Source: a virus. From it: a stretch of DNA of 64,000 bases. The notes beneath the pieces were generated by a model. That model saw only the letters and a list, made by a program, of their open reading frames with translations. It made no database searches and was not told where the DNA came from. The stretch is from IMG/VR virus record IMGVR_UViG_3300045988_150584; one strand, given 5' to 3'. Below, one piece after another: positions 2-50,465 of this stretch (its first letter is position 1; each line of letters starts with the position of its first letter). A program made the translations under genes and the position numbers.

Positions 2-580
2 AAAGAGCGCTTGTCTACTTACTATGTAGCCCACTTCAAGGAGAATGTTTTTTCAAAAGCCCCAAACTCCAAGATCTATATGAACTATTTTCAGCAAGGC
101 TTTCATTATCTTGATGACTTTTCATTTCCGTCGAGAAGTATTATTGGCGTAGAAGAAAAGGTTGATTTTATGTTTGCTGGCAGAAAATTTACCGGATTCG
201 TTGATCTCATTAGCGAAAATGGGAAACTGATTGTGACAGACCACAAATCAAGAACTTTGAAGCCTCGCTCAAAGCGTTCAAAGCCAACAAAGCATGATGC
301 GGAATTAGACGAATATCTACGCCAGCTATATGTCTATTCCGCAGCAATCAAAGGAAAATATGGTCGCTACCCAGATATATTAGAGTTTAATTGTTTCCGC
401 TCTCAAGCCATGATTCAAGAACCATTCGAGTCAAAAAGGCTTTATACGGTTGAGGATTGGGCGAGTAAAACAATAGATTCCATTGCCACCAACGATAAGT
501 GGAGCGCAAAGCCAGATTATTGGAGGTGTAATTATCTATGCGATGTTTGTGACCATTGCGAATATAAAGGATTGATTTGA
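2..580 (+). CDS. PD-(D/E)XK Cas4/RecB-like exonuclease (5' end outside window)
   Basis: The frame is open to the window edge. Core VDLIS...VTDHKS (D..D-x-K), QLYVYS (QxxxY) and terminal Cys cluster CNYLCDVCDHC, as in Cas4-type Fe-S nucleases. Confidence 0.55.
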   Translation, partial: KERLSTYYVAHFKENVFSKAPNSKIYMNYFQQGFHYLDDFSFPSRSIIGVEEKVDFMFAGRKFTGFVDLISENGKLIVTDHKSRTLKPRSKRSKPTKHDAELDEYLRQLYVYSAAIKGKYGRYPDILEFNCFRSQAMIQEPFESKRLYTVEDWASKTIDSIATNDKWSAKPDYWRCNYLCDVCDHCEYKGLI

Positions 581-20670: not shown

Positions 20671-22281
20671 GTGAAACAACTGATTTATCGCGTCGCGCTC
20701 TACATGCGATTGAGCCGAGACGATGAAGATTACGGAGAAAGCGTTAGTATTGAAACCCAGCGCAAAATCATCACACAATTTGCTAACGAACAGCACTTCA
20801 TTATAGTTGACGAGTACATTGATGATGGTTGGAGTGGTACGAACTTTGATCGTCCAGCATTCCAACGCATGATGGAAGATGTTGAGTCCGGAAAGGTGAA
20901 TTGCATTATTACCAAGGATCTCTCCCGCCTTGGTCGTGAGCATATCATGATGGACTATTATCTGGAATTCTACTTTCCAGAAAAGCGAATCCGCTATATT
21001 GCCGTCACAGAAAATGAAGATACGGAAAAAGGCTTGTCTGACTTCGTTCCGTTCAAGAACCTATTCAATGAATGGTTTGCAAAGGATACAAGCCGTAAAG
21101 TCAAAGCCGCTTTCAAAGCAAAGTTTGCTGCTGGAGATCGTATTTGCGCATATGTTAAAATCGGATATAAGCGGCATCCAGAGATTAAAAACCGTATTGT
21201 GCCAGATGAAGAAACAAGGTGGATACCTGAGAAAATCTTTGATTTGGCTTATCACGGTGCTGGAGCTGCTAAAATTACAAGGACTCTAATTGCAGAGAAA
21301 GTTCCTACGCCGTCCTGGATTAACTACCAGAGATTCGGGACATTCGCTCATGTATATCAAAATGCCTCAGAAGAAAAACGGTACGCATGGACGGTTGCAC
21401 AAGTTAAGTACATCTTGAAAGATGAAACCTACATTGGGAATACAGTTCACTACAAACAGACGAACATATCTTTCAAGAACAAGAAACGCATTCGCAAGCC
21501 AGAAGATGAATGGTGGAGAATAGAAAACACTCACGAGGGATTGATTCCAAAGGAGATGTTTGATTCTGTTCAGGCGCAAATTGCCACCAGACGTCGGATG
21601 CAGAAAGATCATACAACGCAGATCTTCTCCGGACTTGTCAAATGTGCCGATTGCGGATGGTCAATGCGTTTCGGTACGAACAGGCAAAACAAAAACCCAT
21701 ACAGCCACTACACATGCAGCAAGTATGGGCAAGTAGGAATTCATTGTTCTGCGCACTATATCCGATACGATGTACTGTATGCCTATGTGCTATCAAGAAT
21801 TCAGTATTGGGCGACACAAGCCGTACAAGACGAGGATGCTCTTTTAGAAAGGCTTCTTCAAACTGGCAATGCAAAGCAGAATGCCGAGCGAAAAAAGATC
21901 GCTGACGATTTGAAGAGAGCTGAAAAACGGCAAAAGGAATTGGACAACCTTTTCGCCAAGCTATACGAAGATCGAATTGCTGAAAGAATTACAGAGCGAA
22001 ACTTCATTATGCTGTCTGCAAAATATCAGGAAGAGCAAAATGCTTTGGACGGTAAGATAGACCTACTTAATGGGCAAATCAGTGAAAATTCTGAGCGATA
22101 TAGCAATATTGAAACTTGGGTGAAACTGATTAAGCAGTACGCATCTCCAACGGAATTAGACTCAATTTTACTCAATGCTCTTGTGGAAAAAATCACAGTC
22201 CACGAGGCAGTTAAACACGAAGATGGAAGTCGAGAGCAAGAGGTCGAGATTTTCTATAAGTTTGTAGGAAAGATCGACTGA
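20671..22281 (+). CDS. large serine recombinase (phage integrase type)
   Basis: Resolvase catalytic domain (YMRLSRDDE, TKDLSRLGRE), recombinase domain, Zn ribbon CADCG...CSKYG..HC and a long C-terminal coiled coil. Confidence 0.9.
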   Translation: MKQLIYRVALYMRLSRDDEDYGESVSIETQRKIITQFANEQHFIIVDEYIDDGWSGTNFDRPAFQRMMEDVESGKVNCIITKDLSRLGREHIMMDYYLEFYFPEKRIRYIAVTENEDTEKGLSDFVPFKNLFNEWFAKDTSRKVKAAFKAKFAAGDRICAYVKIGYKRHPEIKNRIVPDEETRWIPEKIFDLAYHGAGAAKITRTLIAEKVPTPSWINYQRFGTFAHVYQNASEEKRYAWTVAQVKYILKDETYIGNTVHYKQTNISFKNKKRIRKPEDEWWRIENTHEGLIPKEMFDSVQAQIATRRRMQKDHTTQIFSGLVKCADCGWSMRFGTNRQNKNPYSHYTCSKYGQVGIHCSAHYIRYDVLYAYVLSRIQYWATQAVQDEDALLERLLQTGNAKQNAERKKIADDLKRAEKRQKELDNLFAKLYEDRIAERITERNFIMLSAKYQEEQNALDGKIDLLNGQISENSERYSNIETWVKLIKQYASPTELDSILLNALVEKITVHEAVKHEDGSREQEVEIFYKFVGKID

Positions 22282-26569: not shown

Positions 26570-26842
26570 TTATCCCTCCAAAATCGTTTGAATCATTTCA
26601 TTGATTGCGGACTGTTGATGGGATACAGCAGTCCCGCCGTCAATCTCTGATACAATAACGGTTTCTGCATTCTGGATTTCATCATGACCAATCAAACCAT
26701 AGGTTGTTCCATCAAACACAACGCCAGTTGCATTCTCTTTCTTGGCAATGGCAAAATCGCCGCTGCTACCAATCTTCACATATGTAACAGTCTCGACCAT
26801 ACCAAGTTCTTTTCCATCTGAAACTTTAACAATACGATACAT
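26570..26842 (-). CDS. hypothetical protein
   Basis: 90 aa, abutting its neighbours with no gaps. Confidence 0.55.
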   Translation of the reverse strand: MYRIVKVSDGKELGMVETVTYVKIGSSGDFAIAKKENATGVVFDGTTYGLIGHDEIQNAETVIVSEIDGGTAVSHQQSAINEMIQTILEG

Positions 26843-27244
26843 TTATTTGCCCTCCTTTACTCCAATCAGATTTGCAATATACCGTAGTACATCAATATCG
26901 GCATTATAAAAATCATGATTCCAAAGCCATGTATCGTCGCACTCTTGGCGACGGTATCTTTGACAAATGGAATCGTCTGCTACCTTTTCACAACGCTCAT
27001 CGTGCTTCGTATCTTTTTTCTCAAGCGCCGTCTGGATACTGCTTGTGAGTTTACCTCTGAGCATTCCATTACCATCGTCATTTCTGGCAAAAAACTGGTG
27101 TGCATTTCTGGAAAATACACTGCAAATTTGCTTGCCATTGTAATAAATAACATTACCGACAGACTCGCATTCGCTCATAGCTGGAATATTCACACTATCG
27201 CAAACAGAAGTGTGTCTAAATCTTCTATGTACAATGTACTGCAT
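26843..27244 (-). CDS. hypothetical Cys-containing protein overlapping the RT 3' end
   Basis: 133-aa ORF whose start lies 20 nt inside the RT coding region. No motif recognised. Confidence 0.5.
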   Translation of the reverse strand: MQYIVHRRFRHTSVCDSVNIPAMSECESVGNVIYYNGKQICSVFSRNAHQFFARNDDGNGMLRGKLTSSIQTALEKKDTKHDERCEKVADDSICQRYRRQECDDTWLWNHDFYNADIDVLRYIANLIGVKEGK

Positions 27245-28406
27245 CTTTTAATCTCTCCATTGCTCTGAAATTTTCTATGTTTTCTGCTGAAAAGCCATAG
27301 ATAGCATAAAAGAGCCGCCGCAACCTCAACACTCGTTGATGATTTTGATAGCTCTCTAAATACGCAAGCATCCCATTTACAGAAGTCCATAAATCCTCGT
27401 AGGACATTTCGCCATTTTGCACTTTCTCATAGAATGCTTTGATTTTGTGTCTGGTACGCTTGAAACTTCCTCGATTACCAGTCTCAATAACACGACCGCT
27501 TTCCGTCAAGGTATATTTCGCCTTACAATAACGAAACGGCTTGGAGAGCGGGACAATTCTGGATTTTTCTTTACTGATGGTCAGATCCAGTTCTGACGCT
27601 TTTTGAACAATGAGACGCATGATCTCCTTTGGATCTTGATTTGGAGGAACTATAATATAGTAGTCATCCATATAATGACCAGCGCATTTAATAGAGAGCT
27701 GGCATTTAATGTAGTTATCAAGCGGAGATGGGAAAGCAATCATTTCAGCCTGACTCGGCTCAACTCCAAGTGGCATACCTTTATCACCGGTGCTTGATGC
27801 AACAATATCATCACCAAGCTTGCACAAATCATAATCATGAATCAGCTTGTTATGACGGGCGTAGATAACACGGTGCGATGCACTTGGAAAGAATTGTTTG
27901 TAGTCTAAAAGAATTATGCTTCCATTTCTCCCATAGCGCTTAAAATGATAATGCAAATCCTCGCGCAAAAGTCTTTTAGAGAAATGAAAACCTTTGCCTG
28001 GGAGACTTGCTCCGTTATTCCAAATCATATCTGGCAGATATAAAGGCAAAAGGACTTTCTTTGTATAAACCTTGTGTATCTGTCTATCTTGAATGCGAGG
28101 TGCGTCAATTGGTCTTGTTTTACCGCGCTCAGAGATAACGAAATGGACATATGGGCATGGTTTCCACATTTTATCCAGTATTAGTTTTCTCCGTCGCGCC
28201 GTGCCGGAAAACAAGTGCATTTCAAATCTTTGTGCGCTGTTCTTCCAACGCACACCATTACAGCATTGCTTTCCTGCCTTGTATAAGTCGCCGTAGGAAA
28301 ATACATCTGACATCGTTCCTACAGCAAGACTTCGTTCTTGTTTCTTGCGCCATCTCTCGGCTTTCCGTCGTTGGAATCTTGCCTCATGACGCTCTTTGCT
28401 TGTCAT
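27225..28406 (-). CDS. DGR reverse transcriptase
   Basis: RT motifs ILLDYKQFFPS (A), MPLGVEPSQ (B, with SQ as in DGR RTs) and HYMDDYYII (C). No maturase or endonuclease domain. Adjacent to the TR. Confidence 0.9.
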   Translation of the reverse strand: MTSKERHEARFQRRKAERWRKKQERSLAVGTMSDVFSYGDLYKAGKQCCNGVRWKNSAQRFEMHLFSGTARRRKLILDKMWKPCPYVHFVISERGKTRPIDAPRIQDRQIHKVYTKKVLLPLYLPDMIWNNGASLPGKGFHFSKRLLREDLHYHFKRYGRNGSIILLDYKQFFPSASHRVIYARHNKLIHDYDLCKLGDDIVASSTGDKGMPLGVEPSQAEMIAFPSPLDNYIKCQLSIKCAGHYMDDYYIIVPPNQDPKEIMRLIVQKASELDLTISKEKSRIVPLSKPFRYCKAKYTLTESGRVIETGNRGSFKRTRHKIKAFYEKVQNGEMSYEDLWTSVNGMLAYLESYQNHQRVLRLRRLFYAIYGFSAENIENFRAMERLKDAVHCT

Positions 28407-28638
28407 AAATAGTTATTCGCCTTTCGTACAGTTGTAATATAGAGTGCGCCTAAACTGCTTTGCCTTGACACATGAAATAGGATTAAGCACAATATCCTCC
28501 CACCATGCAAGAAGCGTCCGTGCAAAAGCATCAAAAGAGCGGTTTTGGGTTTTATCCACGGGAAACATTTCTCCTTTCGCAAAGGTCTCCTTCATCCTCA
28601 AAAGGACTACCGTATTTGACCATACCTAAAAGGGTTGC

Positions 28639-28764
28639 GAAATCGGGGGCGAGGCCATTGGAATTCCTGGCGTTGTTGTTGTTCGCGTTGCCGTTCGTGT
28701 TCACATTGCAGAAGTTGTTGCTGTTGTTGTAGTACGGAGAACGCTCCCACCAATTCGCAGTGGA
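28639..28764 (-). repeat. DGR template repeat (TR)
   Basis: 126 bp matching 29402-29527 except at TR adenines. The coding sense reads STANWWERSPYYNNSNNFCNVNTNGNANNNNARNSNGLAPDF (AAC-rich). Confidence 0.9.
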
Positions 28765-28857
28765 CAGCGGGAATCCCCAAAGCCGACAGGTTTTACAGAA
28801 ATGCACCCAATTTTTATGATCTGGTAAGCAAAGCCCAATTTTCGTTGGTAGATATAA

Positions 28858-29313
28858 TTAGCGGTCTTTGTCGCTCTTTAATGTATTTGTCAAAAGACCG
28901 TTTTCGGAATCAATCAGCTCACCAAGCGATTGCGCCATATTTTCAAGAATTTCTTTTGCTCTTGCTGGCTTAACTGGATTTCCATTTGATGTTGTAAAGC
29001 ATCCCTCCGGATTCAGCATCATAATGTCATAGCAATGAGATAGCTCAACATCCAAAGCCATCAATGCAGCTCTTGATTCTAAAAGGTGCTGCTTGCGCAA
29101 CTCCTTTCTGGTATGATCCGATGGAAAGATACTGTTTGCCTTTTCTGCATTCACGAGAACTTCTGACGCAAGATGTGATACATCGTTAGCCATCAGTCTT
29201 GAAAATCTTGCAGAAAGTCGAGATAAGAAGTTAATCGTTTCCACATAAATCTTGTTTGCAGTATTCACAAACTCAGCTTTGCTTTCAGATCTATGTGCTT
29301 TTAATACCGACAT
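28858..29313 (-). CDS. avd: DGR accessory variability determinant (Avd-like)
   Basis: 151-aa helical-looking ORF between the target gene and the TR. AAGGAG 9 nt upstream. Size and position as for bAvd. Confidence 0.7.
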   Translation of the reverse strand: MSVLKAHRSESKAEFVNTANKIYVETINFLSRLSARFSRLMANDVSHLASEVLVNAEKANSIFPSDHTRKELRKQHLLESRAALMALDVELSHCYDIMMLNPEGCFTTSNGNPVKPARAKEILENMAQSLGELIDSENGLLTNTLKSDKDR

Positions 29314-29335
29314 AAATAGAACTCCTTTTTATATT

Positions 29336-29375
29336 TTGAAAAACAAAAAGAAACCCGCCCTCTTTCGAGGGCAGG
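29336..29375 (-). terminator. strand-specific hairpin/terminator just 3' of the VR
   Basis: - strand: CCUGCCCUC GAAA GAGGGCGGG (9 bp including one G-U, GAAA loop), then UUUCUUUUUGUUUUUC. Confidence 0.75.
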
Positions 29376-29392
29376 ATTCTCTTGATATGGGA

Positions 29393-31480
29393 TTAGACGC
29401 GGAAAGCGGGGGCGAGGCCATAGGAAAACCAGGCGTCGGTGAAGCCCGCGTCGCCGTTCGAGTACACACTGCAGAAGTAGAGGCCGCTGCTGTAGTACGG
29501 AGAACGCTCCCACCAATTCGCAGTGGAAGAAGTAGAGTTATGGCGATACTTGATCTTAGAATTACCAGCCTTATAGTAATCGTACTGTTTCTGATAATTC
29601 TTTTCTGCACTATTTGCATAAGAGCGAGAGCCAAAGATCTCAAACTCCGCCAACAAAGGCAGATAATCTACAGACTTTGTAACATACGAAGCAGTATCAG
29701 AACCGCCAGCAGTATTGTCCGTATAAATCGTCATCGGTTTCATAACCGCACGAAGCGCGGATGGCAATGCAGCCATTAGCGTATTTGCAACAGGGCTTGT
29801 AGCACAAGTAGATGTTGCATCATTACCCTTACGACCAGAAGAAACCGCGCTACCATATCCGCTTGGAGCAACATTTGTACTGCCAAGAACATCATAACGT
29901 AGGTCGCATCCAGCCCATCCACCATAGTTATAGTTACCCCAATGGTTCATGTTGAAATACTTTGAACCATTCGTCGAATAACTATTGTAGTTGCCATCGG
30001 TAAGACACAAATCACTTCCGCCAGAAGCCGCAGACTTGAATCCACCAAAGTCAATGGTGTTCGATGCGCCATTGTGAGCAAATCCAAGAATATATACATA
30101 GTAAGTAGCATTCACTGCCAATGTACCGACTGTACCATTGACTAAAACGCCCTTACGATCACCGACGTCGAAATAGTCATCACCTTTACCAGCAGCGGAA
30201 ATCTGAGCAATTTGTTCCCATGTGTATGTGTCAAGCGCATTACCCATTGGGGGCATAAACGACGCGATAACATCAACTGTCTTGTTAGAAGGGGCTGTAT
30301 AGTTCGTACCAGCACCGCAAGAAACAGTGATTGTAGTGTTACCTGTGGTCTGATTGACATGAGAAACCGTAGCGGTATTTCCGCTTAGACTAACGGTCGC
30401 AATAGATGTATTGTTAGATTTAACCGACAATGTTCCATCGTGATTACCGCCAATCGTGAATGTGGTAGTCAGATTATCTTTATCCACTGTAACGCTTGTC
30501 TTGCTTACAGTCAGCGTACCAGTTGCCTTACCGATCTTCCACGAAACAGTCTTTGCTGTAGTCGTACCGTCAGACCAGCAATAATCCGACTTTGGCGTAA
30601 ATGTGGCATTGTATGTGCCGGCATTTGTTCCGGATGTCGTTCCGCCAATCGTCATCTTGGATGTGTCATAGTTACTCCAAGACGGAGACTGAGAGTTTTT
30701 ATTATATGTCAGCGTACCACTCTGGCTTGGAACAGTCGAAATCGTCAAACGATTTGGAACTCCGGTTATTCTATTACTTGTGTTTACATTAACTGCACCA
30801 TCCGTAGAGATGGGGAAGAATGAAATGTAATAGGTTGTTCCGTTAGTTAGGCCGGTAACAGTAAGTGCAGAATTCGCATACTGATTGCGAGTGGTCACAT
30901 TTAAGCTATAAGCCGCAGCGCTATCATCTGGAGAAGTTGCATAGCTTCCAGCCTTAACGACAATCTTTGTGCTTGCCCATGTCGCAAGTGTCACGCCGTC
31001 CGAAACTACGGTCGCGGCTGGATCAGTCCACTTGATTGCAAGCTTTCCATTACCAGCAGCAACAGCGCTTGCGCCAGAAATATTACCAACATTTACAGCA
31101 GCAGGAGTAACATTGAATTCGTCATCCGTACTGTCCGTATATGTACCAGTGGTAGTGTATGGGAACAGCTTATAGTAATACTTCACGCCGTTAGTCAATC
31201 CACTATCACAGAAATAGGCAGATTTATATTGATCTCGCGTCTTGCTGTCGAGAACGATTGTGCCATCTCTACGACTTGTCGGAGCAGAACCAGCCTTACG
31301 AACAAGGAGTGTTCCTCCCCATGCGGCAAGAGTAGAGCCAGCAACGACCATATCATCAGGATCAGTCCATTTTACATAGACCTTCCCAGCCGCCGCGAGC
31401 GTTGTAATTCCCGTAACAGCGGCAAGGGCAAGTCCGCCGCCAGATCCGCCGCCAGTTGGGAAATTAGAAATAATAGGCAT
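29393..31480 (-). CDS. DGR target: tail-fibre-module receptor-binding candidate with C-terminal variable region
   Basis: GGAGGAA SD. Gly-rich N-terminus, two FN3-like repeats (KWTDP...GLTNG..YY..FP), Ig-like segments, and a C-terminus ...STANWWERSPYYSSGLYFCSVYSNGDAGFTDAWFSYGLAPAFRV that contains the VR. Confidence 0.85.
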   Translation of the reverse strand: MPIISNFPTGGGSGGGLALAAVTGITTLAAAGKVYVKWTDPDDMVVAGSTLAAWGGTLLVRKAGSAPTSRRDGTIVLDSKTRDQYKSAYFCDSGLTNGVKYYYKLFPYTTTGTYTDSTDDEFNVTPAAVNVGNISGASAVAAGNGKLAIKWTDPAATVVSDGVTLATWASTKIVVKAGSYATSPDDSAAAYSLNVTTRNQYANSALTVTGLTNGTTYYISFFPISTDGAVNVNTSNRITGVPNRLTISTVPSQSGTLTYNKNSQSPSWSNYDTSKMTIGGTTSGTNAGTYNATFTPKSDYCWSDGTTTAKTVSWKIGKATGTLTVSKTSVTVDKDNLTTTFTIGGNHDGTLSVKSNNTSIATVSLSGNTATVSHVNQTTGNTTITVSCGAGTNYTAPSNKTVDVIASFMPPMGNALDTYTWEQIAQISAAGKGDDYFDVGDRKGVLVNGTVGTLAVNATYYVYILGFAHNGASNTIDFGGFKSAASGGSDLCLTDGNYNSYSTNGSKYFNMNHWGNYNYGGWAGCDLRYDVLGSTNVAPSGYGSAVSSGRKGNDATSTCATSPVANTLMAALPSALRAVMKPMTIYTDNTAGGSDTASYVTKSVDYLPLLAEFEIFGSRSYANSAEKNYQKQYDYYKAGNSKIKYRHNSTSSTANWWERSPYYSSGLYFCSVYSNGDAGFTDAWFSYGLAPAFRV
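29402..29527 (-). repeat. DGR variable repeat (VR)
   Basis: The last 42 codons of the target gene. 21 differences from the TR, all at TR adenines (hand alignment). Confidence 0.9.
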
Positions 31481-42641: not shown

Positions 42642-45600
42642 TTATCCTCTGAGCATAGAATTAGCAACCTTGTTTCTAATTCCCTTACGCCGATTTGCAC
42701 TAATCAGTTTTCCAATTGTAAAGTCAGCATAATACTCAGCAAAGCCCTTCATATTTTCTTCCGTCACATTCTGCATCTGGAAGTAGTTCTGAATAGTGAC
42801 ACGATCATCCGTAGACGAATTATCTGTATTACTATTGTCGTTCGTAATCGACTTAACGACCTCAGAAACAGCGGGTGATGTAGAAGTAAGGTTGCCAATC
42901 AATGAGTCCAAAACACCAGTAATACCATATTTCAACGAATTGAAAATACGCATATACTGATCTTTCGTCATGACAAGCTCTCCATCCTTCAAAACAGAAA
43001 GGACTTCATCAGCACCGGCAGCTCGACCGCCAACATAACCCTCGTCCAAACCAGTATGGAACAGTCGCGGGCCATTTGCGGAATCAAGATACCAAACGCC
43101 ATTCACTTTAACAACCTTGCGCCCCAATAGAGCGGAAAGCTGTTCGGCAAGATCCTCATTCTCCTTAACCAAACGGTTCTTTTCTTCCTGCGTCTTTGCA
43201 GTATGCCAACCCTTACTATTTGTCTGCATCTTACTCAAAATTCTGTCGATTTGCGTTTGCTTATCGTCAGCATTCTTTCCAGCGTAGGAAATTTCAGAGT
43301 TAATACCATTCAGCGCAGACACGACATCGCCGTATTCCTGCGCCGCTGCCTTAGCAGTTCGCCAAGCGGAAGTAATAGAATCTTCGCCGTCGATCATATC
43401 TCCATATTGCTTATTCCACTCAATTAGGTCTGTGTATAGCTGTTCCCAATTGCTGTTGATGCGGGCAATAGCTGCATTGTACACCTTTTCTTCCGTATCA
43501 ACTGTGGACTTCACATAGGAAATTTCATCGTTTTTCGTATCCTCAAAAGTATCAGCTTCTTTGTCCAAAGCGTCAACTTGTGAATTATACGCATAATCTG
43601 CTTGATAGTCAGCCAACTCCTGCTGAAGCTGAGCCAGCTCTTGTGCCAGCTTTTGTTTTTCAGCATTTGCTGATGCACTCGTATCACGATCCAACTGCGC
43701 AAGCTTCGCTTGCTTTTCAGCAATCTCAGCTACTTTTTCTGCAACAGTTCTTTGATAGTCTTCTTCATCCTTAGTCGCAGAAAGAGACTCTTTCTTCAAA
43801 TCAATGATTTTACGGAAAGCGTCAATCTGTGCTTCCAGAGCATCTACTTGATCCTCAGCCTCTTGACGAACAAGCTCCATCGTCATCTCAATGATTTTCG
43901 TTAGAGCATCTTTCTGTTCGTTGTAGATTTCAACGCCCGTTTCACGCATAAGACTGTTATACTCTTTCAGAGTTAAAACACCCTCTTCAAATAGGCGATT
44001 GATTTCTTTCAGCTTTTGTTTCAGGTAGTCAACCTTGGTAAAATTGAAATCTCCCCACAAATCAAAATCATCGGCATAATCAATGAAGTCATCAAATGTA
44101 TCAAGAACATTATCTGCAATTTTAGAGTTAATATCTTGAATATCATTATAAGCACCCCACCATGCGTCAATACAATCTTGAATTGCTTCGTCGTTTTCGT
44201 CCAGTCCGAGATCACGCAGACGTCGTTCTTCCTTATGAGCTTCTTCTTGAATTTTCTTTTGTTCTTCAAGCTGCTTATAAAGGTTATCCAACATCGCATC
44301 CTTGGTCTGATTGTTGTCCAGCATATCATACTGGTTTTCCAACAGACTGAGCATATTGTTATGATTATCTACCGCAGTCTGGTAAATATCATGCAACATA
44401 TCCTCAATCGTATCCTGATAATCCCACCACTTTTTCTGTAGGTCTTGGATATAATCAGAGGTATCATCTAAACCAAGCGCACGATACTTTTCAGCTTGTG
44501 CGTGGACTGTTTCTTGCATCTTCCGATAGATGGCAATAATTTGTTCCGGAGTCCCGTCATTCTTCTCCAAAAGGAAAATTGAATGCTCAAAATTGCCAAT
44601 GATATCGGATAGTTGGTCTTCCAAATCGTCCAGCTTATCTTTAAGCTGTTCTTCTAATGTCTTATCGTCAATTGTCGCTTCGACTGTAGCGTTGAATGTG
44701 ATTGGTGTTCCACTTGAACCGGTCTTGCCTGTCTCAACATGCAATCCACCTGTCTGGACTCTGCCTTTCGCATAAGCTGGGATAACACCCTTGAGCTGCT
44801 TGCCAGATCCGTGTACGATACGCTTTGTTTCATCCGCAGTATAAACACGGTCGCCCTGCTTGAGATTAACAACCTCAGCGCCATTTACACCTGCAAGATA
44901 AGCTTTATCGCCAGACTGGATAAGCTCAGCGCCCTCTTCACCAACCAACGCATCACCAGCCGGTGCAGCACCAGTACCAGAAGCATACCCAAAGATACTT
45001 CCAAGAATGCCGCTCTTACGCTTTGTGTCAATCGTGACCGTAGCGGTTTGACCGTCCAAATGCTGAACAGCAGTTTGAACGCGCTTTACTGCGGTCTCTG
45101 CGTCGCTTGCAGCAGTTTCAATGTTATTAAACTGATCAACAACATTATCAGTTGTCTCATCGTCAACATCCTCGACAGCCTGCGCAACACCATCAACATT
45201 AGAAGTTACTGTCGCAAAATCCAAACCGTTCAGATACTCCAGCGCATCTGTCGTATCTTTAATTTCACCTTGCGAATTTGTGAGGGAAATACCGTCTGCT
45301 TCACCAAGCTTTGTGATTAGGTTTTCCGCCTGTTCCTTAGTGAAGTTTAGTTCGGAAAGAAGTGGGGCAAGAGCTTCTGCATCAACATTGACCGTGATAC
45401 CATCGCTGGCTGCTAAACCAAGATTAGTAAGACTGTTCGTTAAACCGTCAATGCTGCCCTCTGCATCCAACAATACAACGCCATCGAGATCTTGTAGACC
45501 TGTCAGAATATCATAGATTTCCTTGTCAGTCTTACCAAGAGTGATAAGCTGATCGGTAAGCGCCGAAACATTGATTGCTTTCTTTCCAGCATTCTCCGCA

Positions 45601-48600
45601 GATAGACCAATTTCGTCGATAACATCTGCGACCTCGTTCATATCGTAGAAATCAATATCTCCCCACATGGAGAGGGCTTCCAGACATGCAAGAACCGCAT
45701 CTGTCGTAATACCCATCTTTTCGGCAATCGCGTCCAGATTATCCGGATCAATGTCGAAAACATAAGCACCATCAGAATCTTTACTGATATCCAGTAATTT
45801 TTCGCCCTGATCGTTGACTAACTGACCAGCCTGAGACATCTGATATAGCCGTTCAACAAAACCAGCACCAGCACTGTCAGCGTCCTCAAACACAATCTTG
45901 TTTTTCTCCATCGCGGAGTAGATTTCGTCAAGACCATCGCTCCATCCCCATGTAGATAGCTGATCGCTACCAAATAGGAATTCAGCCGCAGCCCAGAAAG
46001 CATTTGAGTTGGTCGTGCCTGCTTCAAACTGCTTATTCAGTTCCTCAAAGGCTTCTGCATAAGACTTAAAGTCGGTATCCTTTTCCTCGACAGACATGGC
46101 AGCATCGTACCGTGCTTTCGCCTCAGTTACGCTGTCAAATTTATCTACCATGCCATCAAGAGCATCATTGAGCTTCAACGCCTGCTCTGTAATAAGAGCA
46201 ACACCATCGCCACCCTCAGCCATAACCTGTAGGATATGTGCGAGGAATTGCGCATTCATACCGTCTTCATCAAGAACACCGGCAAGAATACCGCTTTCCT
46301 CAGCCAATTCCTTTACATTTTCGGCTGTGATACCATCAAGTGTTATTGAAAGAGTCATCAACTCTTCCTTAGCGTCAGCAAAGTTTTCAGAATTCCAAAG
46401 GCTCTTAATCGTGGTCTTGAGCTGTTCAGAATGTCTTCTTGCTACTTCCTGTTCGCTATTATACTTTTCGATTGCTACAGTGATATCATCCCAAGTCGTT
46501 GCGCCTTGGTTAATAACCGCATCATAAGCAACCTCAAATTCCTCATCTGATAGACCGCGTAGCTTTTCTTTGACTTCATCAGCCTCAGCAAGCCATGCGT
46601 CTAACTCATGGAAATGTGCAGATGTGCCAGACTCATACTGTTCGTAGTTTTTGGGAACTAACGCCTCAGCAATAGCCTGCATTTTCTCGTTGACTTGCTT
46701 AGCCTGACTTTCGCGCTGATTTAGCTCTTCAAGCAAACCAGCATAGTAATCATTCGTACCAAGCGTTTTATCAACAAGTTCCTCAGCAGAATATGTACCA
46801 TTCTCGTCGAAACTCAAATCGTTCTGAACCTGCTGGATCAGATCCTTGCGCATCTTTTCAAACTGGTCAAGGTCTTCTGGCTTTGCAAGCTTCTGAGCAG
46901 CAAGGAAAGCGTCTTCCGCAATCATCTGATTGTTTTTATCAATCTGATCAATTGCGTCGGACAACGCAGCGTCGTATTCGTTATAAGCATCCGCAAGAAC
47001 TTCAAATACCGGATTTTCACTTCCGAATTTGTCACGAACTGCGTTCATCGCATCTTGTAGATACTTATAATTCGCCGCTAAATCCTCAAATGTGACATCT
47101 TTTAAGCCACCATCTGAACTATATACGCTTGGAAGGAAGATTGTTCCGCCGCCCTTGCTACCACTATCATCAATACCAGTAAACCCAAGCTCTTTAAGAT
47201 ACGCCATAGCGTCTCCAGCTTCTTTACCAGTTGCAGAATAAAAACTATGACTATTGAAATATCCATCAAGCTCTTTTACAGCATCTTCTTTAACAACATT
47301 AGCAGCACGAACACCTTTTGAAATGTCGGTTTGTAACTGCGTTCTGGCCGCGTCGATAATGCTATCTCGCAAATCTGCATAGCTACCAGACAAATTATCA
47401 ACAGCAACACCCTGATCTTTCAGATAGGCAATTAGCTCGTCTTGAATAGCAATAAGATCTTCTTGTGAGCCAGTACCAGCCTCGACAGCATTACTCAGCT
47501 CAATATAAGAAGATGCGAGATCATACAACTTCTTTGCATCTTCCGAAGCAGTAGTACCCGCTTCGACAGCAGCCTGACGAGCCTCCTTAGCCTTGTTAAT
47601 TAGCTTTGAAATTCCAGAAACAATTGCCGAAATAGCAAGACCAATACCAAGACTAATCAGCATATTCAGAGCGGTCTTTAACACCTGTACGCCAACAGCG
47701 GCGTCTTTTGAAGCAACGCCCATTTCTGTTGTAGATGCAGATGCGTTTGTCATTGATGAACGATATGCGTCAGTGGAAATCGTAGCATCATCTGTTACAT
47801 GAACAGCCGTTTTCAGCGAACTACTTCCACGACCAATTGTATCGTTCCATACGATTTGACGTTGTGTCAAATCACTTGTTGATGTACCAAGACCTTGAAT
47901 CTTTGTTTTGTATTCATCAAGTAGACGAATATCATTTTCTAATTCAAGCTTTCCACTATTCCATGCAAATGAAATGCCAGTACCAGTACCAAGCCAATTC
48001 TTCGATGTGGTTGTTTTTAATAACTGAAGCTTATCAAAGAATGGGGTAATACCAGCAAGAATCGCAGGAAATGCACCAAGCGTTTCAATAAGTTTTGTGA
48101 GCCAACCAAGCAATCCAGTTCCAGCATCATATGCACCCTTAATCAAATCACTATTCAAAATAGTCTTTGCAAGAGCTTGATACTGAGCTTGGAATTTTTG
48201 CTGCTTCGCCTCAATGCTGTCCATCCACTTCTCATGCTCAGCGAGAGCAGAACCCTCCGCATTAACGGAAGCATTCATGGCACTAACAGCATCGTCCATA
48301 TTTTCGATAGCCGCCGCCAGAGCGTTACCCTGACGCTTACCAGCCAGCAATTCAAGCAATGCAGCCTGGTCGATATCGCTCATTTTCTCCCAGACCTTAC
48401 TAATTCCAAGAATAATTTCATATGTACTCTTGAAATTATCAGCATCAGCCATAATATCAAAACCACCAGAGCCATCAACATTGGTCAATCCCTTGATTTG
48501 CTTCTGAAGTTTTGCTGTGCTTTCCGCCATATATTCGGTTTCAAGACCGGCTTCTTCAAGCTCAGTCTTTGCACCACGAATACGCATGGCAACGGTTTTC

Positions 48601-50465
48601 CACATTGTACCGACAGCATCGGGATCTTGTACAACATTATTCGCCGCAACAATCAGAGCGATTGACTCATCAATTGTATTGTTTGCCGCAGCCATAGCGG
48701 AAGCGGAGCGCTGCAAAGCATCGCCGACACCTCCAGAAGAAATAGCGAACTCATTGCCAATTTTGTTGAATTTATCAACGATGGTCATTGCATCGCTGGC
48801 TTCAATACCAAACGCTTTCATTGTGGAAATGATAGAGCTGGTAGCCTCGTTCACATCGCTGATTTCGTTACCAACGACGCTATAAATTGTAGCAACTTCT
48901 GCAAGATCAGAAGCATCAGCCATCGAATAGCCAAGGCGAGCAAAATTAGCAGTTGCAGTTACATAGTCAGAATATGATGTACCAATATCAACTGCCTTTT
49001 GTGCCGCGTCAGAAAGGAAACGGTCATACGACTCATCAGTTTCGTCCGTAACCTTTTTCAGCTCAGTCATCGCTGTGTCCAAATCGACAACAGCATCATA
49101 AAGACCAGTAACACCCCGCATGATACCAGCGATAACACCGCCAAGTACCATCCAAGATCCCATTTTCGCAATATTGTTTTTCAGCTCTCCGAATAGAGAC
49201 TGACTATGTTTATCTGCGCTAATAAGTTCCTGCTCGAAAAGTCGAATTTTCGCATTTAGGTTTGTCAGTTCTTTTGAAGAACTAACCATCTGAGACTCAT
49301 CAAAAAGCTGCTGCCATTTTGACATCAAGCTTGGATCAGAAACAAATGCACTATATGTCTGCTTTAGATTCTGAATTCTAAGCTGCGCTGTTTGAATGTT
49401 GGAATTGAGCTTTTCTGCATCCAACAACTTCCCAGAGGCAGTATTATCAAGCTTTATCTGCTTAAACTGCTGTTCGAGTAGCGCAAGCTTATGACGATAT
49501 GCGTCAAGATCGTTCGGATTCAACGCATTATCTAATGCGGTCTTTGCCTCTTCTACGCTTGCCTTAAAATCACCACCGAAAATACCAGCGTTTTGCCACT
49601 TCTTGATTTGTGTTTCAAGACTTGCCTGCAACTCAGCTTTTTGATTTGCAAAAGTATTTGCTTTCAAATCCGTTGCAGCATACGCAGAAGTTTGAAGTTC
49701 CTTTGCATAGCGCTGAAGATCAGCAACCATAGAGTCAATTTCTCTCTTATGTTCAGAAGAGAGAGTGGTGTTTGATTGCTTGATCTCTTCAATACGAGCC
49801 TTTACAGCATTCAGTTTTTCTTTGTACTGATTAAACTGCTCCATATCGCCAAGCAACGGCTTTGATGTGTTTGTCAATGTCTTGCTTGTAATATCGGCAA
49901 TTTTCGTATTGATTCTGTTTAGATAGTTAAGCGTCTGCTCCAAATTAGAGCCGGCGTTTTTATCTGTCAAAATAGAGTTGCTTTGGACGAATCCTTTTAT
50001 GGATTGAGCGCCATCTTTGATTTTTGCAAGATTAAAATTAAACTTCTCTACAACACCATCAGCCTTAGTAACACTGGCTGTAAAGCTTTGGATGTTTCCC
50101 TTAGAATCCTTAAAGACATTCGTAATATCCGTCTTGCCAAGCTTACTGAATTCAGCCTGCGCCCGACTGACGATATCCTTAACCGATGTAAAGTAACGCT
50201 GCCCATCAGCCTTTAATTGCGTTGCATCAAAAACCTGCAATGGCTTATATGTGCCAGTATGGTTTGCACCACCGACCTGCTTGGCGATTGTTTGTAGCTG
50301 ACTCTGCACCGTTTTAACGGAGTCTTCATCAAAACCAACCTTCAGCTTTACAGTGTGCGATTCACTCAGAGACTTAGCAATGCTTGCAAGCTTAGAATCA
50401 AGTGAAGACTGGCTGTTCTCGTCAATCACGGCTTTTAATAGAATTTGCAGATCATCCACGCACAA
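42642..50465 (-). CDS. tape measure protein (2607 aa)
   Basis: GTG after GAGGTGA. Coiled-coil rich, with a TMP core-like segment FGIEASDAMTIVDKFNKIGNEFAISSGGVGDALQRSASAMAAANNT and hydrophobic segments. Directly upstream of the Tal gene. Confidence 0.85.
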   Translation of the reverse strand: MCVDDLQILLKAVIDENSQSSLDSKLASIAKSLSESHTVKLKVGFDEDSVKTVQSQLQTIAKQVGGANHTGTYKPLQVFDATQLKADGQRYFTSVKDIVSRAQAEFSKLGKTDITNVFKDSKGNIQSFTASVTKADGVVEKFNFNLAKIKDGAQSIKGFVQSNSILTDKNAGSNLEQTLNYLNRINTKIADITSKTLTNTSKPLLGDMEQFNQYKEKLNAVKARIEEIKQSNTTLSSEHKREIDSMVADLQRYAKELQTSAYAATDLKANTFANQKAELQASLETQIKKWQNAGIFGGDFKASVEEAKTALDNALNPNDLDAYRHKLALLEQQFKQIKLDNTASGKLLDAEKLNSNIQTAQLRIQNLKQTYSAFVSDPSLMSKWQQLFDESQMVSSSKELTNLNAKIRLFEQELISADKHSQSLFGELKNNIAKMGSWMVLGGVIAGIMRGVTGLYDAVVDLDTAMTELKKVTDETDESYDRFLSDAAQKAVDIGTSYSDYVTATANFARLGYSMADASDLAEVATIYSVVGNEISDVNEATSSIISTMKAFGIEASDAMTIVDKFNKIGNEFAISSGGVGDALQRSASAMAAANNTIDESIALIVAANNVVQDPDAVGTMWKTVAMRIRGAKTELEEAGLETEYMAESTAKLQKQIKGLTNVDGSGGFDIMADADNFKSTYEIILGISKVWEKMSDIDQAALLELLAGKRQGNALAAAIENMDDAVSAMNASVNAEGSALAEHEKWMDSIEAKQQKFQAQYQALAKTILNSDLIKGAYDAGTGLLGWLTKLIETLGAFPAILAGITPFFDKLQLLKTTTSKNWLGTGTGISFAWNSGKLELENDIRLLDEYKTKIQGLGTSTSDLTQRQIVWNDTIGRGSSSLKTAVHVTDDATISTDAYRSSMTNASASTTEMGVASKDAAVGVQVLKTALNMLISLGIGLAISAIVSGISKLINKAKEARQAAVEAGTTASEDAKKLYDLASSYIELSNAVEAGTGSQEDLIAIQDELIAYLKDQGVAVDNLSGSYADLRDSIIDAARTQLQTDISKGVRAANVVKEDAVKELDGYFNSHSFYSATGKEAGDAMAYLKELGFTGIDDSGSKGGGTIFLPSVYSSDGGLKDVTFEDLAANYKYLQDAMNAVRDKFGSENPVFEVLADAYNEYDAALSDAIDQIDKNNQMIAEDAFLAAQKLAKPEDLDQFEKMRKDLIQQVQNDLSFDENGTYSAEELVDKTLGTNDYYAGLLEELNQRESQAKQVNEKMQAIAEALVPKNYEQYESGTSAHFHELDAWLAEADEVKEKLRGLSDEEFEVAYDAVINQGATTWDDITVAIEKYNSEQEVARRHSEQLKTTIKSLWNSENFADAKEELMTLSITLDGITAENVKELAEESGILAGVLDEDGMNAQFLAHILQVMAEGGDGVALITEQALKLNDALDGMVDKFDSVTEAKARYDAAMSVEEKDTDFKSYAEAFEELNKQFEAGTTNSNAFWAAAEFLFGSDQLSTWGWSDGLDEIYSAMEKNKIVFEDADSAGAGFVERLYQMSQAGQLVNDQGEKLLDISKDSDGAYVFDIDPDNLDAIAEKMGITTDAVLACLEALSMWGDIDFYDMNEVADVIDEIGLSAENAGKKAINVSALTDQLITLGKTDKEIYDILTGLQDLDGVVLLDAEGSIDGLTNSLTNLGLAASDGITVNVDAEALAPLLSELNFTKEQAENLITKLGEADGISLTNSQGEIKDTTDALEYLNGLDFATVTSNVDGVAQAVEDVDDETTDNVVDQFNNIETAASDAETAVKRVQTAVQHLDGQTATVTIDTKRKSGILGSIFGYASGTGAAPAGDALVGEEGAELIQSGDKAYLAGVNGAEVVNLKQGDRVYTADETKRIVHGSGKQLKGVIPAYAKGRVQTGGLHVETGKTGSSGTPITFNATVEATIDDKTLEEQLKDKLDDLEDQLSDIIGNFEHSIFLLEKNDGTPEQIIAIYRKMQETVHAQAEKYRALGLDDTSDYIQDLQKKWWDYQDTIEDMLHDIYQTAVDNHNNMLSLLENQYDMLDNNQTKDAMLDNLYKQLEEQKKIQEEAHKEERRLRDLGLDENDEAIQDCIDAWWGAYNDIQDINSKIADNVLDTFDDFIDYADDFDLWGDFNFTKVDYLKQKLKEINRLFEEGVLTLKEYNSLMRETGVEIYNEQKDALTKIIEMTMELVRQEAEDQVDALEAQIDAFRKIIDLKKESLSATKDEEDYQRTVAEKVAEIAEKQAKLAQLDRDTSASANAEKQKLAQELAQLQQELADYQADYAYNSQVDALDKEADTFEDTKNDEISYVKSTVDTEEKVYNAAIARINSNWEQLYTDLIEWNKQYGDMIDGEDSITSAWRTAKAAAQEYGDVVSALNGINSEISYAGKNADDKQTQIDRILSKMQTNSKGWHTAKTQEEKNRLVKENEDLAEQLSALLGRKVVKVNGVWYLDSANGPRLFHTGLDEGYVGGRAAGADEVLSVLKDGELVMTKDQYMRIFNSLKYGITGVLDSLIGNLTSTSPAVSEVVKSITNDNSNTDNSSTDDRVTIQNYFQMQNVTEENMKGFAEYYADFTIGKLISANRRKGIRNKVANSMLRG

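Follow-up and report, generated by a model that had tools for sequence, protein, structure and literature searches.

[quoted passage not shown] Among the known sources of targeted protein hypervariation in phages, DGRs are the principal one, and gut Firmicutes phages have them in abundance. The initial annotation described a complete element that diversifies a tail-module protein of such a phage, with its parts in the order target, accessory gene, template repeat (TR), and reverse transcriptase (RT). Our analysis strongly supports this description, and the four open reading frames (ORFs) and both repeats were all recovered on the minus strand at the positions given there. The locus is very probably a DGR of the type found in Faecalibacterium phages Taranis, Roos, and Pioen, placed where the tail module ends distally in a large, temperate, siphovirus-like phage. 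This phage comes from the human gut, its host is probably a member of the Oscillospiraceae, and the element presumably works by a BPP-1-like mechanism.

An independent repeat search returned the two repeats as a 126-nucleotide (nt) direct repeat with 83% identity. From this search and the comparison of the copies, the TR (28639-28764, minus strand) is non-coding in function, while the variable repeat (VR; 29402-29527, minus strand) lies in frame at the 3' end of the protein-coding target gene and forms its last 42 codons. The computed alignment spans 126 nt without gaps. As in the earlier alignment by hand, it contains 21 mismatches, and each of them falls on a TR adenine (10 A>T, 8 A>G, and 3 A>C). 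Since the alignment is ungapped, adenine specificity cannot be an alignment artifact. In total, 21 of the 38 TR adenines differ, and the chance that 21 of 21 mismatches would fall on A is 6.7e-14 (hypergeometric). Every mismatch is also confined to codon position 1 or 2. Read in the VR frame, the TR contains 11 AAC and 4 AAT codons and no codon that is convertible to a stop, and stops were absent from the 19 VRs checked. The translations of the two repeats quoted in the initial annotation were reproduced. An ORF at 28552-28806 with a DUF6273 match is not a gene but the TR read in the VR frame. We found one TR and one VR only, with no second VR or remote target above background in the 64-kb window.

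The RT (27225-28406, minus strand; 393 amino acids [aa]) matches Pfam RVT_1 and phrog_1423 (2.5e-66), the PHROG to which approximately 12,700 DGR RTs are assigned. It carries the DGR-type [ILV]GxxxSQ and YxDD motifs, namely, LGVEPSQ at aa 213 to 219 (SQ at aa 218) and YMDD at aa 245 to 248, in agreement with its earlier classification from the YMDD and SQ motifs. Among solved RTs in the PDB, its closest match is bRT (8ub7_A) of the bRT-Avd complex 8ub7; in the alignment of the two, LGVEPSQ pairs with IGSLTSQ and YMDD with YMDD. Identity to BPP-1 Brt is 25% (E = 2e-12). Judged by these sequence comparisons, the RT groups with Bordetella bRT.

To follow the repeats across related loci, protein searches and a TR pattern in which each A was replaced by N were used, as megablast of the cassette gave no match among GenBank phages and failed to reach the relatives. 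The TR pattern retrieved 22 loci and the RT protein five further loci encoding an identical RT, making 27 together. The TR is identical in 20 of the 22 pattern-found loci and almost invariant over all 27. The pattern-found loci yielded 19 VRs, all different from each other. Within repeat positions 4 to 107 of these VRs, 344 of 703 A cells (approximately 49%) were substituted and all 37 adenines vary, while background divergence elsewhere in the same loci is 2 to 8%. Non-A cells showed 0 mismatches in 1,653, a count that rests on loci ascertained by the TR pattern itself. The five loci with an identical RT also have VRs that are all different, with non-A mismatches at 3 of 435 cells; the non-A rate is thus very low rather than zero. 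When both samples are combined, there are 24 distinct VRs and changes at 3 of 2,088 non-A sites. At these related loci, therefore, VR hypervariability is almost confined to TR-adenine sites. Together with the TR/VR comparison, this population pattern strongly supports the proposal of adenine-directed mutagenic retrohoming that has been recently active.

The same loci delimit the region that is exchanged. A-site variation in the relatives' VRs defines a mutagenized tract corresponding to 29421-29524 (repeat positions 4 to 107, minus strand). It is followed by a GC-rich VR 3' end, TGGCCTCGCCCCCG (29407-29420, minus strand), which is IMH-like and invariant across all VRs. Just after TGGCCTCGCCCCCG, repeat position 122 (29406, minus strand) is A in the TR and C in the VR, and C is found in 24 of the 24 distinct VRs examined; this site is therefore a fixed TR/VR difference (IMH versus IMH*-like) and no product of mutagenesis. 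One relative, L033, has a G115T change in its TR that is mirrored in its own VR, indicating that transfer extends to at least position 115. From these sequences, the transfer boundary maps between positions 115 and 122. The L033 change also provides indirect support for unidirectional TR-to-VR transfer, which would pass through an RNA/cDNA intermediate.

Could the same arrangement have arisen without a DGR, as an ordinary direct repeat, a gene 3' end duplicated and since diverged, that lies by chance beside an unrelated retron, group II intron, or defense RT? The best NCBIfam match of the RT is indeed a group II RT/maturase model, yet at 44 bits it falls far under the 300-bit cutoff, and the matches to defense RTs (DRTs) are weak, all at or below 37 bits, whereas bRT ranks first among solved RTs. 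PADLOC is not discriminating in this case, as BPP-1 Brt itself cross-hits many DRT models. Moreover, a chance repeat would not account for the stop-avoiding design of the TR or for a cassette order kept across lineages whose RTs are only 33 to 50% identical. Adenine-only mismatches (P of approximately 7e-14) and the agreeing population pattern already refute this explanation on sequence grounds, and we give it practically no credence. A second alternative is that the element is a relic, its parts present but no longer mobilizing, and its VR differences old, fixed, and carried along by diverging phage lineages. With relatives 2 to 8% divergent elsewhere, long VR divergence is possible in principle, and the DGR of phage Lelie gave no read variation in a published experiment. 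Yet every ORF of the element is intact, and 23 contigs encode the very same RT protein (100% identity) although every VR examined differs. The TR remains invariant amid diverging surroundings and the non-A sites of the VRs match it (0 of 1,653 and 3 of 435 deviating), a combination that requires ongoing overwriting from the TR; in L033, a recent point change in the TR is already present in its VR. [quoted passage not shown] A relic is hence quite improbable. The element is evidently active, a conclusion that for this exact genome is drawn from sister genomes rather than from its own reads.

The gene between the target and the TR requires a more cautious interpretation. This 151-aa ORF (28858-29313, minus strand; phrog_30516) occupies the position of Avd, and the initial annotation called it Avd-like; the sequence, profile, and fold comparisons limit that resemblance to position and predicted four-helix-bundle fold. 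By sequence, the ORF has no match in Pfam, NCBIfam, or the PDB (phmmer), and a Pfam search of 39 diverse members of its family gave no match at E ≤ 10. Avd was not found in a PDB profile search with the 39-member family profile, and hhalign assigned the family a probability of 0.3% against BPP-1 Avd and 0.2% against the Avd profile (PF22296). The AF2 model has four long helices (pLDDT, 83). In Foldseek, the best TM score against the PDB belongs to 2gsc, a five-chain four-helix protein (0.81 to 0.85), with no significant E value, and 6 of the top 15 viral matches in BFVD are annotated as Avd-like, at E = 0.01 to 0.1. As four-helix bundles are a common class, this feature discriminates weakly for Avd. 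Avd is a homopentamer of basic character that binds nucleic acid and the RT; the protein encoded here has a pI of 6.5, compared with 8.5 to 9.7 for most family members and 9.55 for BPP-1 Avd. Given the lack of detectable Avd homology and of basic character, its role is assumed from position and fold.

The ORF might therefore be a conserved neighboring phage gene, in a DGR clade that works with the RT and its structured RNA alone or with a host factor. Its lack of Avd homology and the near-neutral copy in this window are compatible with this idea, as is the flexible spacing implied by an extra small ORF between target and accessory gene in Taranis-type phages. However, the ORF adjoins the TR upstream in every relative, including MT837512, where identity drops to 28% for the ORF and 33% for the RT. 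The Avd-sized bundle, the fold matches to 2gsc and Avd-like proteins, and the mostly basic family members likewise argue for an accessory function, so we consider a mere neighbor unlikely. Less likely than not, but a real possibility, is that the phrog_30516 protein is a functional replacement of Avd without a recoverable sequence relationship, working with RT-2 RNA (see below) and not with a BPP-1-type spacer. The two would then make up a DGR ribonucleoprotein of separate design, common among gut Firmicutes phages (329 clusters at 50% identity and more than 1,300 at 90%). If this possibility held, the rules established with bRT-Avd-Sp for priming and for the mutagenesis of adenines might not carry over as such to the dominant DGRs of the human gut virome.

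[quoted passage not shown] As in the RT-2 family, the match is located directly upstream of the RT gene. The RNA is present at the same place in six divergent relatives (170 to 175 bits), and compensatory changes affect 18 of 47 predicted pairs. The study that first described RT-2 RNA noted only its association with RT genes and raised, as speculation, a role in DGRs for RT motifs other than RT-10 (Weinberg et al. 2017, PMC5737381). A mir-135 match in Rfam (23 bits; E = 0.23) is noise. Downstream of the VR, a hairpin of the form CCTGCCCTC-GAAA-GAGGGCGGG precedes a T-run (29354-29375, minus strand; z = -3.9). Its counterparts in all relatives and in BPP-1 likewise consist of a GC stem closed by a loop of 4 nt (GAAA, GGAA, or GTCA); their stems differ in sequence, and most lack a T-run. 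The hairpin is a candidate DGR target-recognition element that would double as the terminator of the target gene; in this genome, hairpin and T-run could also be a terminator only. Neither RT-2 RNA nor this hairpin appeared in the initial annotation.

The target protein (29393-31480, minus strand; 695 aa) has N-terminal tandem repeats of approximately 114 aa and a C-terminal DUF6273 domain that contains the VR. Pfam DUF6273 (PF19789) matches aa 568 to 694 with 34.3 bits (gathering cutoff, 23.5), homologs of the target also carry PF19789, and the protein belongs with phrog_37900 (7.5e-129). A C-type-lectin (CLec) fold, as in DGR variable proteins of the Mtd, TvpA, and DUF1566/FGE types, had been expected for the VR domain. 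The AF2 model of the last 266 aa (pLDDT, 95.6) did not demonstrate it: CLec domains appear only as subthreshold local matches (E ≥ 1.9; 25 to 43 columns), Mtd and TvpA are absent from the fold matches, and a profile search of the PDB gave no match. The sole significant fold match is 9qa6, an IgA peptidase.

By analogy with BPP-1, a transcript spanning the 3' region of the accessory gene, the TR, and RT-2 RNA would be bound by the RT together with the four-helix 151-aa protein. RT-2 RNA would then position and prime cDNA synthesis; in Rfam it is classed apart from the BPP-1 spacer, so its priming role is an analogy. The RT would copy the TR faithfully except opposite adenines, where any base may be inserted, and the cDNA would replace the VR, guided by the GC-rich VR 3' end and the downstream GC hairpin, leaving the TR unchanged. 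Such a process could generate up to approximately 5e21 protein variants over about 23 codons of the DUF6273 domain in a tail-associated protein, with stops impossible. The diversified domain presumably alters receptor or ligand binding.

BPP-1, the prototype (mtd-avd-TR-brt), has the same gene order. In both elements, the VR occupies the final codons of a tail-protein gene, the TR is rich in AAC, and the GC-rich VR 3' end leads into a GC stem closed by a GAAA loop. A structured RNA separates TR from RT in each case, and the RT described here is homologous to Brt and shares [ILV]GxxxSQ and YMDD with it. One difference is the accessory protein, for which no homology to Avd is detectable. RF03077 stands in place of RF03022 (Phage_DGR) as spacer RNA, and DUF6273 in place of Mtd as target domain, with neither fold nor sequence giving a match to Mtd. 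The distance from the VR to the start of the hairpin is 26 nt here and 4 nt in BPP-1, and the RT has 393 aa rather than 328. The element could serve for a biochemical comparison with the Bordetella system.

The closest named counterparts are the published DGRs of Faecalibacterium phages FP_Taranis, Pioen, and Roos (Cornuault et al. 2018, PMC5883640; PMC11792537, 2024). These phages, Dulem virus 34, and two metagenomic phages all have this cassette, with TR/VR mismatches that are A-specific, and the annotation of Taranis gp68 describes it as a DGR target. Taranis, Pioen, and Roos share the order of DUF6273 target, phrog_30516 ORF, TR, RT-2 RNA, and RT, the VR at the DUF6273 C terminus, and the location between the tail module and the lysis genes. 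This lineage was known, and the element leaves the understanding of DGRs unchanged. It is a well-documented natural case, with 24 distinct VR alleles set against one template and a mapped tract (positions 4 to 107), and it links three poorly annotated families, DUF6273, phrog_30516, and Rfam RT-2, in one working system. Its practical use is in annotation, because so far neither the accessory gene nor the RNA bears a name in these phages.

Identity to the three Faecalibacterium phages is approximately 50% for the RT, approximately 64% for the accessory ORF, and 43 to 49% for the target. The phage analyzed here is much larger, the contigs of its relatives measuring 77 to 105 kb versus 52 to 54 kb, and its gene content is different, with a DNA polymerase, NrdD, and an ORF as large as a tape-measure gene (2,607 aa) among the differences; the extra small target-accessory ORF of Taranis-type phages is absent here. 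Another ORF, orf133 (26843-27244), overlaps the stop of the RT and was weighed as a fifth component of the DGR. We rejected it because relatives conserve it away from the RT, with orf133 and the adjoining orf90 swapped; the two genes stand in opposite order in Taranis, Pioen, and Roos.

Four features of a diversity-generating retroelement (DGR) lie collinear on the minus strand: the target gene (a 695-aa open reading frame [ORF], 29393-31480), an accessory ORF of 151 aa (28858-29313), the template repeat (TR, 28639-28764), and a 393-aa reverse transcriptase (RT, 27225-28406), with the variable repeat (VR, 29402-29527) at the 3' end of the target. A repeat search made independently recovered the two 126-nt copies as a single direct-repeat family with 83% identity. 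Their MAFFT alignment is gap-free, and all 21 mismatches fall on TR adenines when read on the minus strand (10 A to T, 8 A to G, and 3 A to C), an outcome that 21 random mismatches would give with P = 6.7e-14. The initial annotation, made from the sequence alone, had the numbers and the translations of both repeats exactly right. The VR differs at 21 of the 38 TR adenines, and every change affects the first or second codon position in the frame of the target gene. Neither strand of the 64-kb window holds further TR-like sequence.

In the VR frame, the TR has 11 AAC and 4 AAT codons, and no TR-frame codon can mutate to a stop; none of the 19 VRs examined below contains one. The theoretical repertoire is 4^37 DNA sequences, or ~5e21 proteins. 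An 84-aa ORF spanning the TR (28552-28806, minus strand) is not a real gene: its DUF6273 score of 24.8 bits exceeds the Pfam threshold solely on account of the TR being a copy of the VR, and gene callers could report a spurious gene there.

A search of IMG/VR, GTDB genomes, and metagenomes, in which each TR adenine was replaced by N, yielded 22 loci, 92 to 98% identical to the window over the cassette, 20 of them with an identical TR. The 19 loci in which a VR is present have 19 distinct VRs. Since these loci were ascertained through the TR, no base of their VRs was constrained by the search. There were no mismatches among the 1,653 nonadenine cells at positions 2 to 126. All 37 adenines between repeat positions 4 and 107 are variable, with 344 of 703 cells substituted (by G more often than T, and T more often than C). 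Position 122 is A in every TR and C in every VR.

A second sample was ascertained through the identical RT protein, found on 23 contigs. One locus, L031, a 69.9-kb human gut contig (k127_24795; ERR321620/PRJEB4336), matches the window over 7,182 nt with 100% identity, and the window probably derives from it; the other five each have a new VR. Three nonadenine differences occur in this sample, two in locus L035 and one in locus L033. The TR of L033 carries G115T, and its own VR carries the same change, apparently a faithful TR-to-VR copy of a nonadenine substitution. Judging from this shared change, transfer ends on its 3' side somewhere from position 115 to the fixed A/C difference at 122. Another related locus, L028 (ULQL01038120.1), has A10T in its TR, and its own VR likewise has T at position 10. 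The single-base TR variants of L028 and L033 are natural markers that could trace TR-to-VR transfer. Two segments, 29821-30291 (midway along the target gene) and 26929-27180, give no BLASTN alignment in most of the 92 to 98% identical relatives; the cassette is otherwise conserved, and both have the appearance of mosaic or exchanged pieces.

The RT matches Pfam RVT_1 (1.4e-10) and phrog_1423 (2.5e-66), the PHROG to which ~12,700 DGR RTs of a global survey belong. Models of defense RTs reach at most 37 bits. Its best match among all PDB sequences is chain A of 8ub7, identifiable as the Bordetella bRT-Avd complex because an Avd chain sits in the same entry. Against Brt, the RT of Bordetella phage BPP-1, which carries the prototype DGR, BLASTP gives 25% identity (E = 2e-12); LGVEPSQ pairs with IGSLTSQ, and YMDD pairs with YMDD. 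[quoted passage not shown] Six divergent relatives have this RNA at the same place with 170 to 175 bits, and RNAalifold on the seven sequences gives 47 pairs, with double compensatory changes in 18. In contrast, the BPP-1 spacer matches another family, RF03022 (Phage_DGR), and not RF03077. The paper describing the RT RNA motifs tied only RT-10 to a DGR and offered speculation on the others (PMC5737381). A hairpin, CCTGCCCTC-GAAA-GAGGGCGGG (29354-29375, minus strand; z = -3.9), begins 26 nt past the VR. Every relative, as well as BPP-1, has after the VR a GC stem closed by 4 loop nucleotides (GAAA, GGAA, or GTCA); stem sequences vary between lineages, and the T-run is missing in most. This conservation, mostly without a T-run, argues that the hairpin is more than a terminator.

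The 151-aa ORF had been called Avd-like; Avd is the accessory protein of the BPP-1 DGR. The ORF belongs to phrog_30516, a PHROG of unknown function that forms >1,300 clusters at 90% identity and 329 clusters at 50% identity, all lacking Pfam domains. The window protein had no matches in Pfam, NCBIfam, or PDB. A 39-member family profile did not find Avd among PDB sequences, none of the 39 members matched the Pfam Avd family at an E value of ≤10, and hhalign gave probabilities of 0.3% against BPP-1 Avd and 0.2% against a 38-member PF22296 (Avd) profile. The predicted structure is, with good confidence, a four-helix bundle (residues 3-31, 35-60, 67-100, and 116-150; pLDDT 83, pTM 0.76). Foldseek against PDB returned no significant E value; the best geometric match is 2gsc (TM 0.81 to 0.85 on the search target; five chains in the entry), which we take to be of the same four-helix superfamily as Avd. 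Among the top 15 matches in a library of viral structures, 6 are labeled Avd-like or bAvd-like (E = 0.01 to 0.1; TM of ≤0.78). The pI is 6.5 for the window protein, 8.5 to 9.7 for most family members, and 9.55 for BPP-1 Avd. Overall, the likeness to Avd holds for position and predicted fold but fails in all sequence-level tests: the ORF resembles Avd in those two respects and is no demonstrable member of its family. We read it as the accessory factor of this DGR clade.

The last 127 residues of the target match Pfam DUF6273, a family also found in the DGR targets of phages Roos, Pioen, and Lelie. A C-type lectin fold had been expected here. The AlphaFold model of the last 266 aa (pLDDT 95.6) has a single significant PDB fold match, 9qa6, an IgA peptidase domain of Thomasclavelia ramosa (E = 1.4e-6); C-type lectin domains are numerous below threshold but align over only 25 to 43 columns (E ≥ 1.9), Mtd and TvpA are absent from the fold matches, and the target sequence profile had no PDB matches. 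The 9qa6 match was obtained with the DUF6273-containing part (aa 430 to 695) and involves part of the peptidase, an enzyme on the surface of a gut bacterium with a host glycoprotein as its binding partner; this could hint at the type of ligand. No Pfam family was found for the N-terminal 429 aa. This part contains a direct repeat (30948-30991 and 31290-31333) whose 342-nt spacing reflects two tandem domains of ~114 aa, with the motifs ...GVKYYYKLFPYTTTG... and ...GTTYYISFFPISTDG....

The same cassette, with adenine-specific TR/VR differences, is present in FP_Taranis, Pioen, Roos, Dulem virus 34, and two metagenomic phages; therefore, the window DGR adds a rather divergent new member to a known lineage, its RT being ~50% identical to those of the named relatives. 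The existing annotation of Taranis gp68 names it a DGR target, and the Roos and Pioen DGRs have been shown to be active (PMC5883640; PMC11792537). The gain is modest: the RT-2 RNA and phrog_30516 can now be placed in an active DGR, the tests for homology to Avd came out negative, and nature supplies an apparent TR-to-VR copy event.

Relatives come from human gut metagenomes and one Oscillospiraceae metagenome-assembled genome; of the named phages, the nearest have Faecalibacterium as host. The phage in the window is organized in two arms. On the plus-strand arm (1-22281) are genes for primase/helicase, DNA polymerase, thymidylate synthase, NrdD, and a large serine recombinase (20671-22281; phrog_95, 1.8e-96). 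The position of this recombinase where the divergent arms meet suggests a temperate phage; neither a host flank nor an att site can be seen inside the window. The minus-strand arm encodes terminase, portal, virion proteins, a 2,607-aa ORF, a 1,268-aa tail protein, Dit, and tail fiber-like proteins, followed by the DGR, a DUF4376 tail fiber-like ORF, a membrane protein, and a 446-aa endolysin. The 2,607-aa single ORF (42642-50465, minus strand) is flanked by the 1,268-aa tail protein on one side and the upstream tail genes on the other. Its size and this position suggest a tape measure protein; such a length would be unusual and would point to a very long tail. Next to the RT on the minus strand lie orf133 (26843-27244), a Cys-rich member of phrog_29409 that overlaps the RT stop by 20 nt and includes the nonaligning segment 26929-27180, and orf90 (26570-26842). 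Taranis-type phages also keep both genes near the RT but in reversed order, and the Taranis homolog of orf133 bears the RefSeq label "isoaspartyl peptidase."
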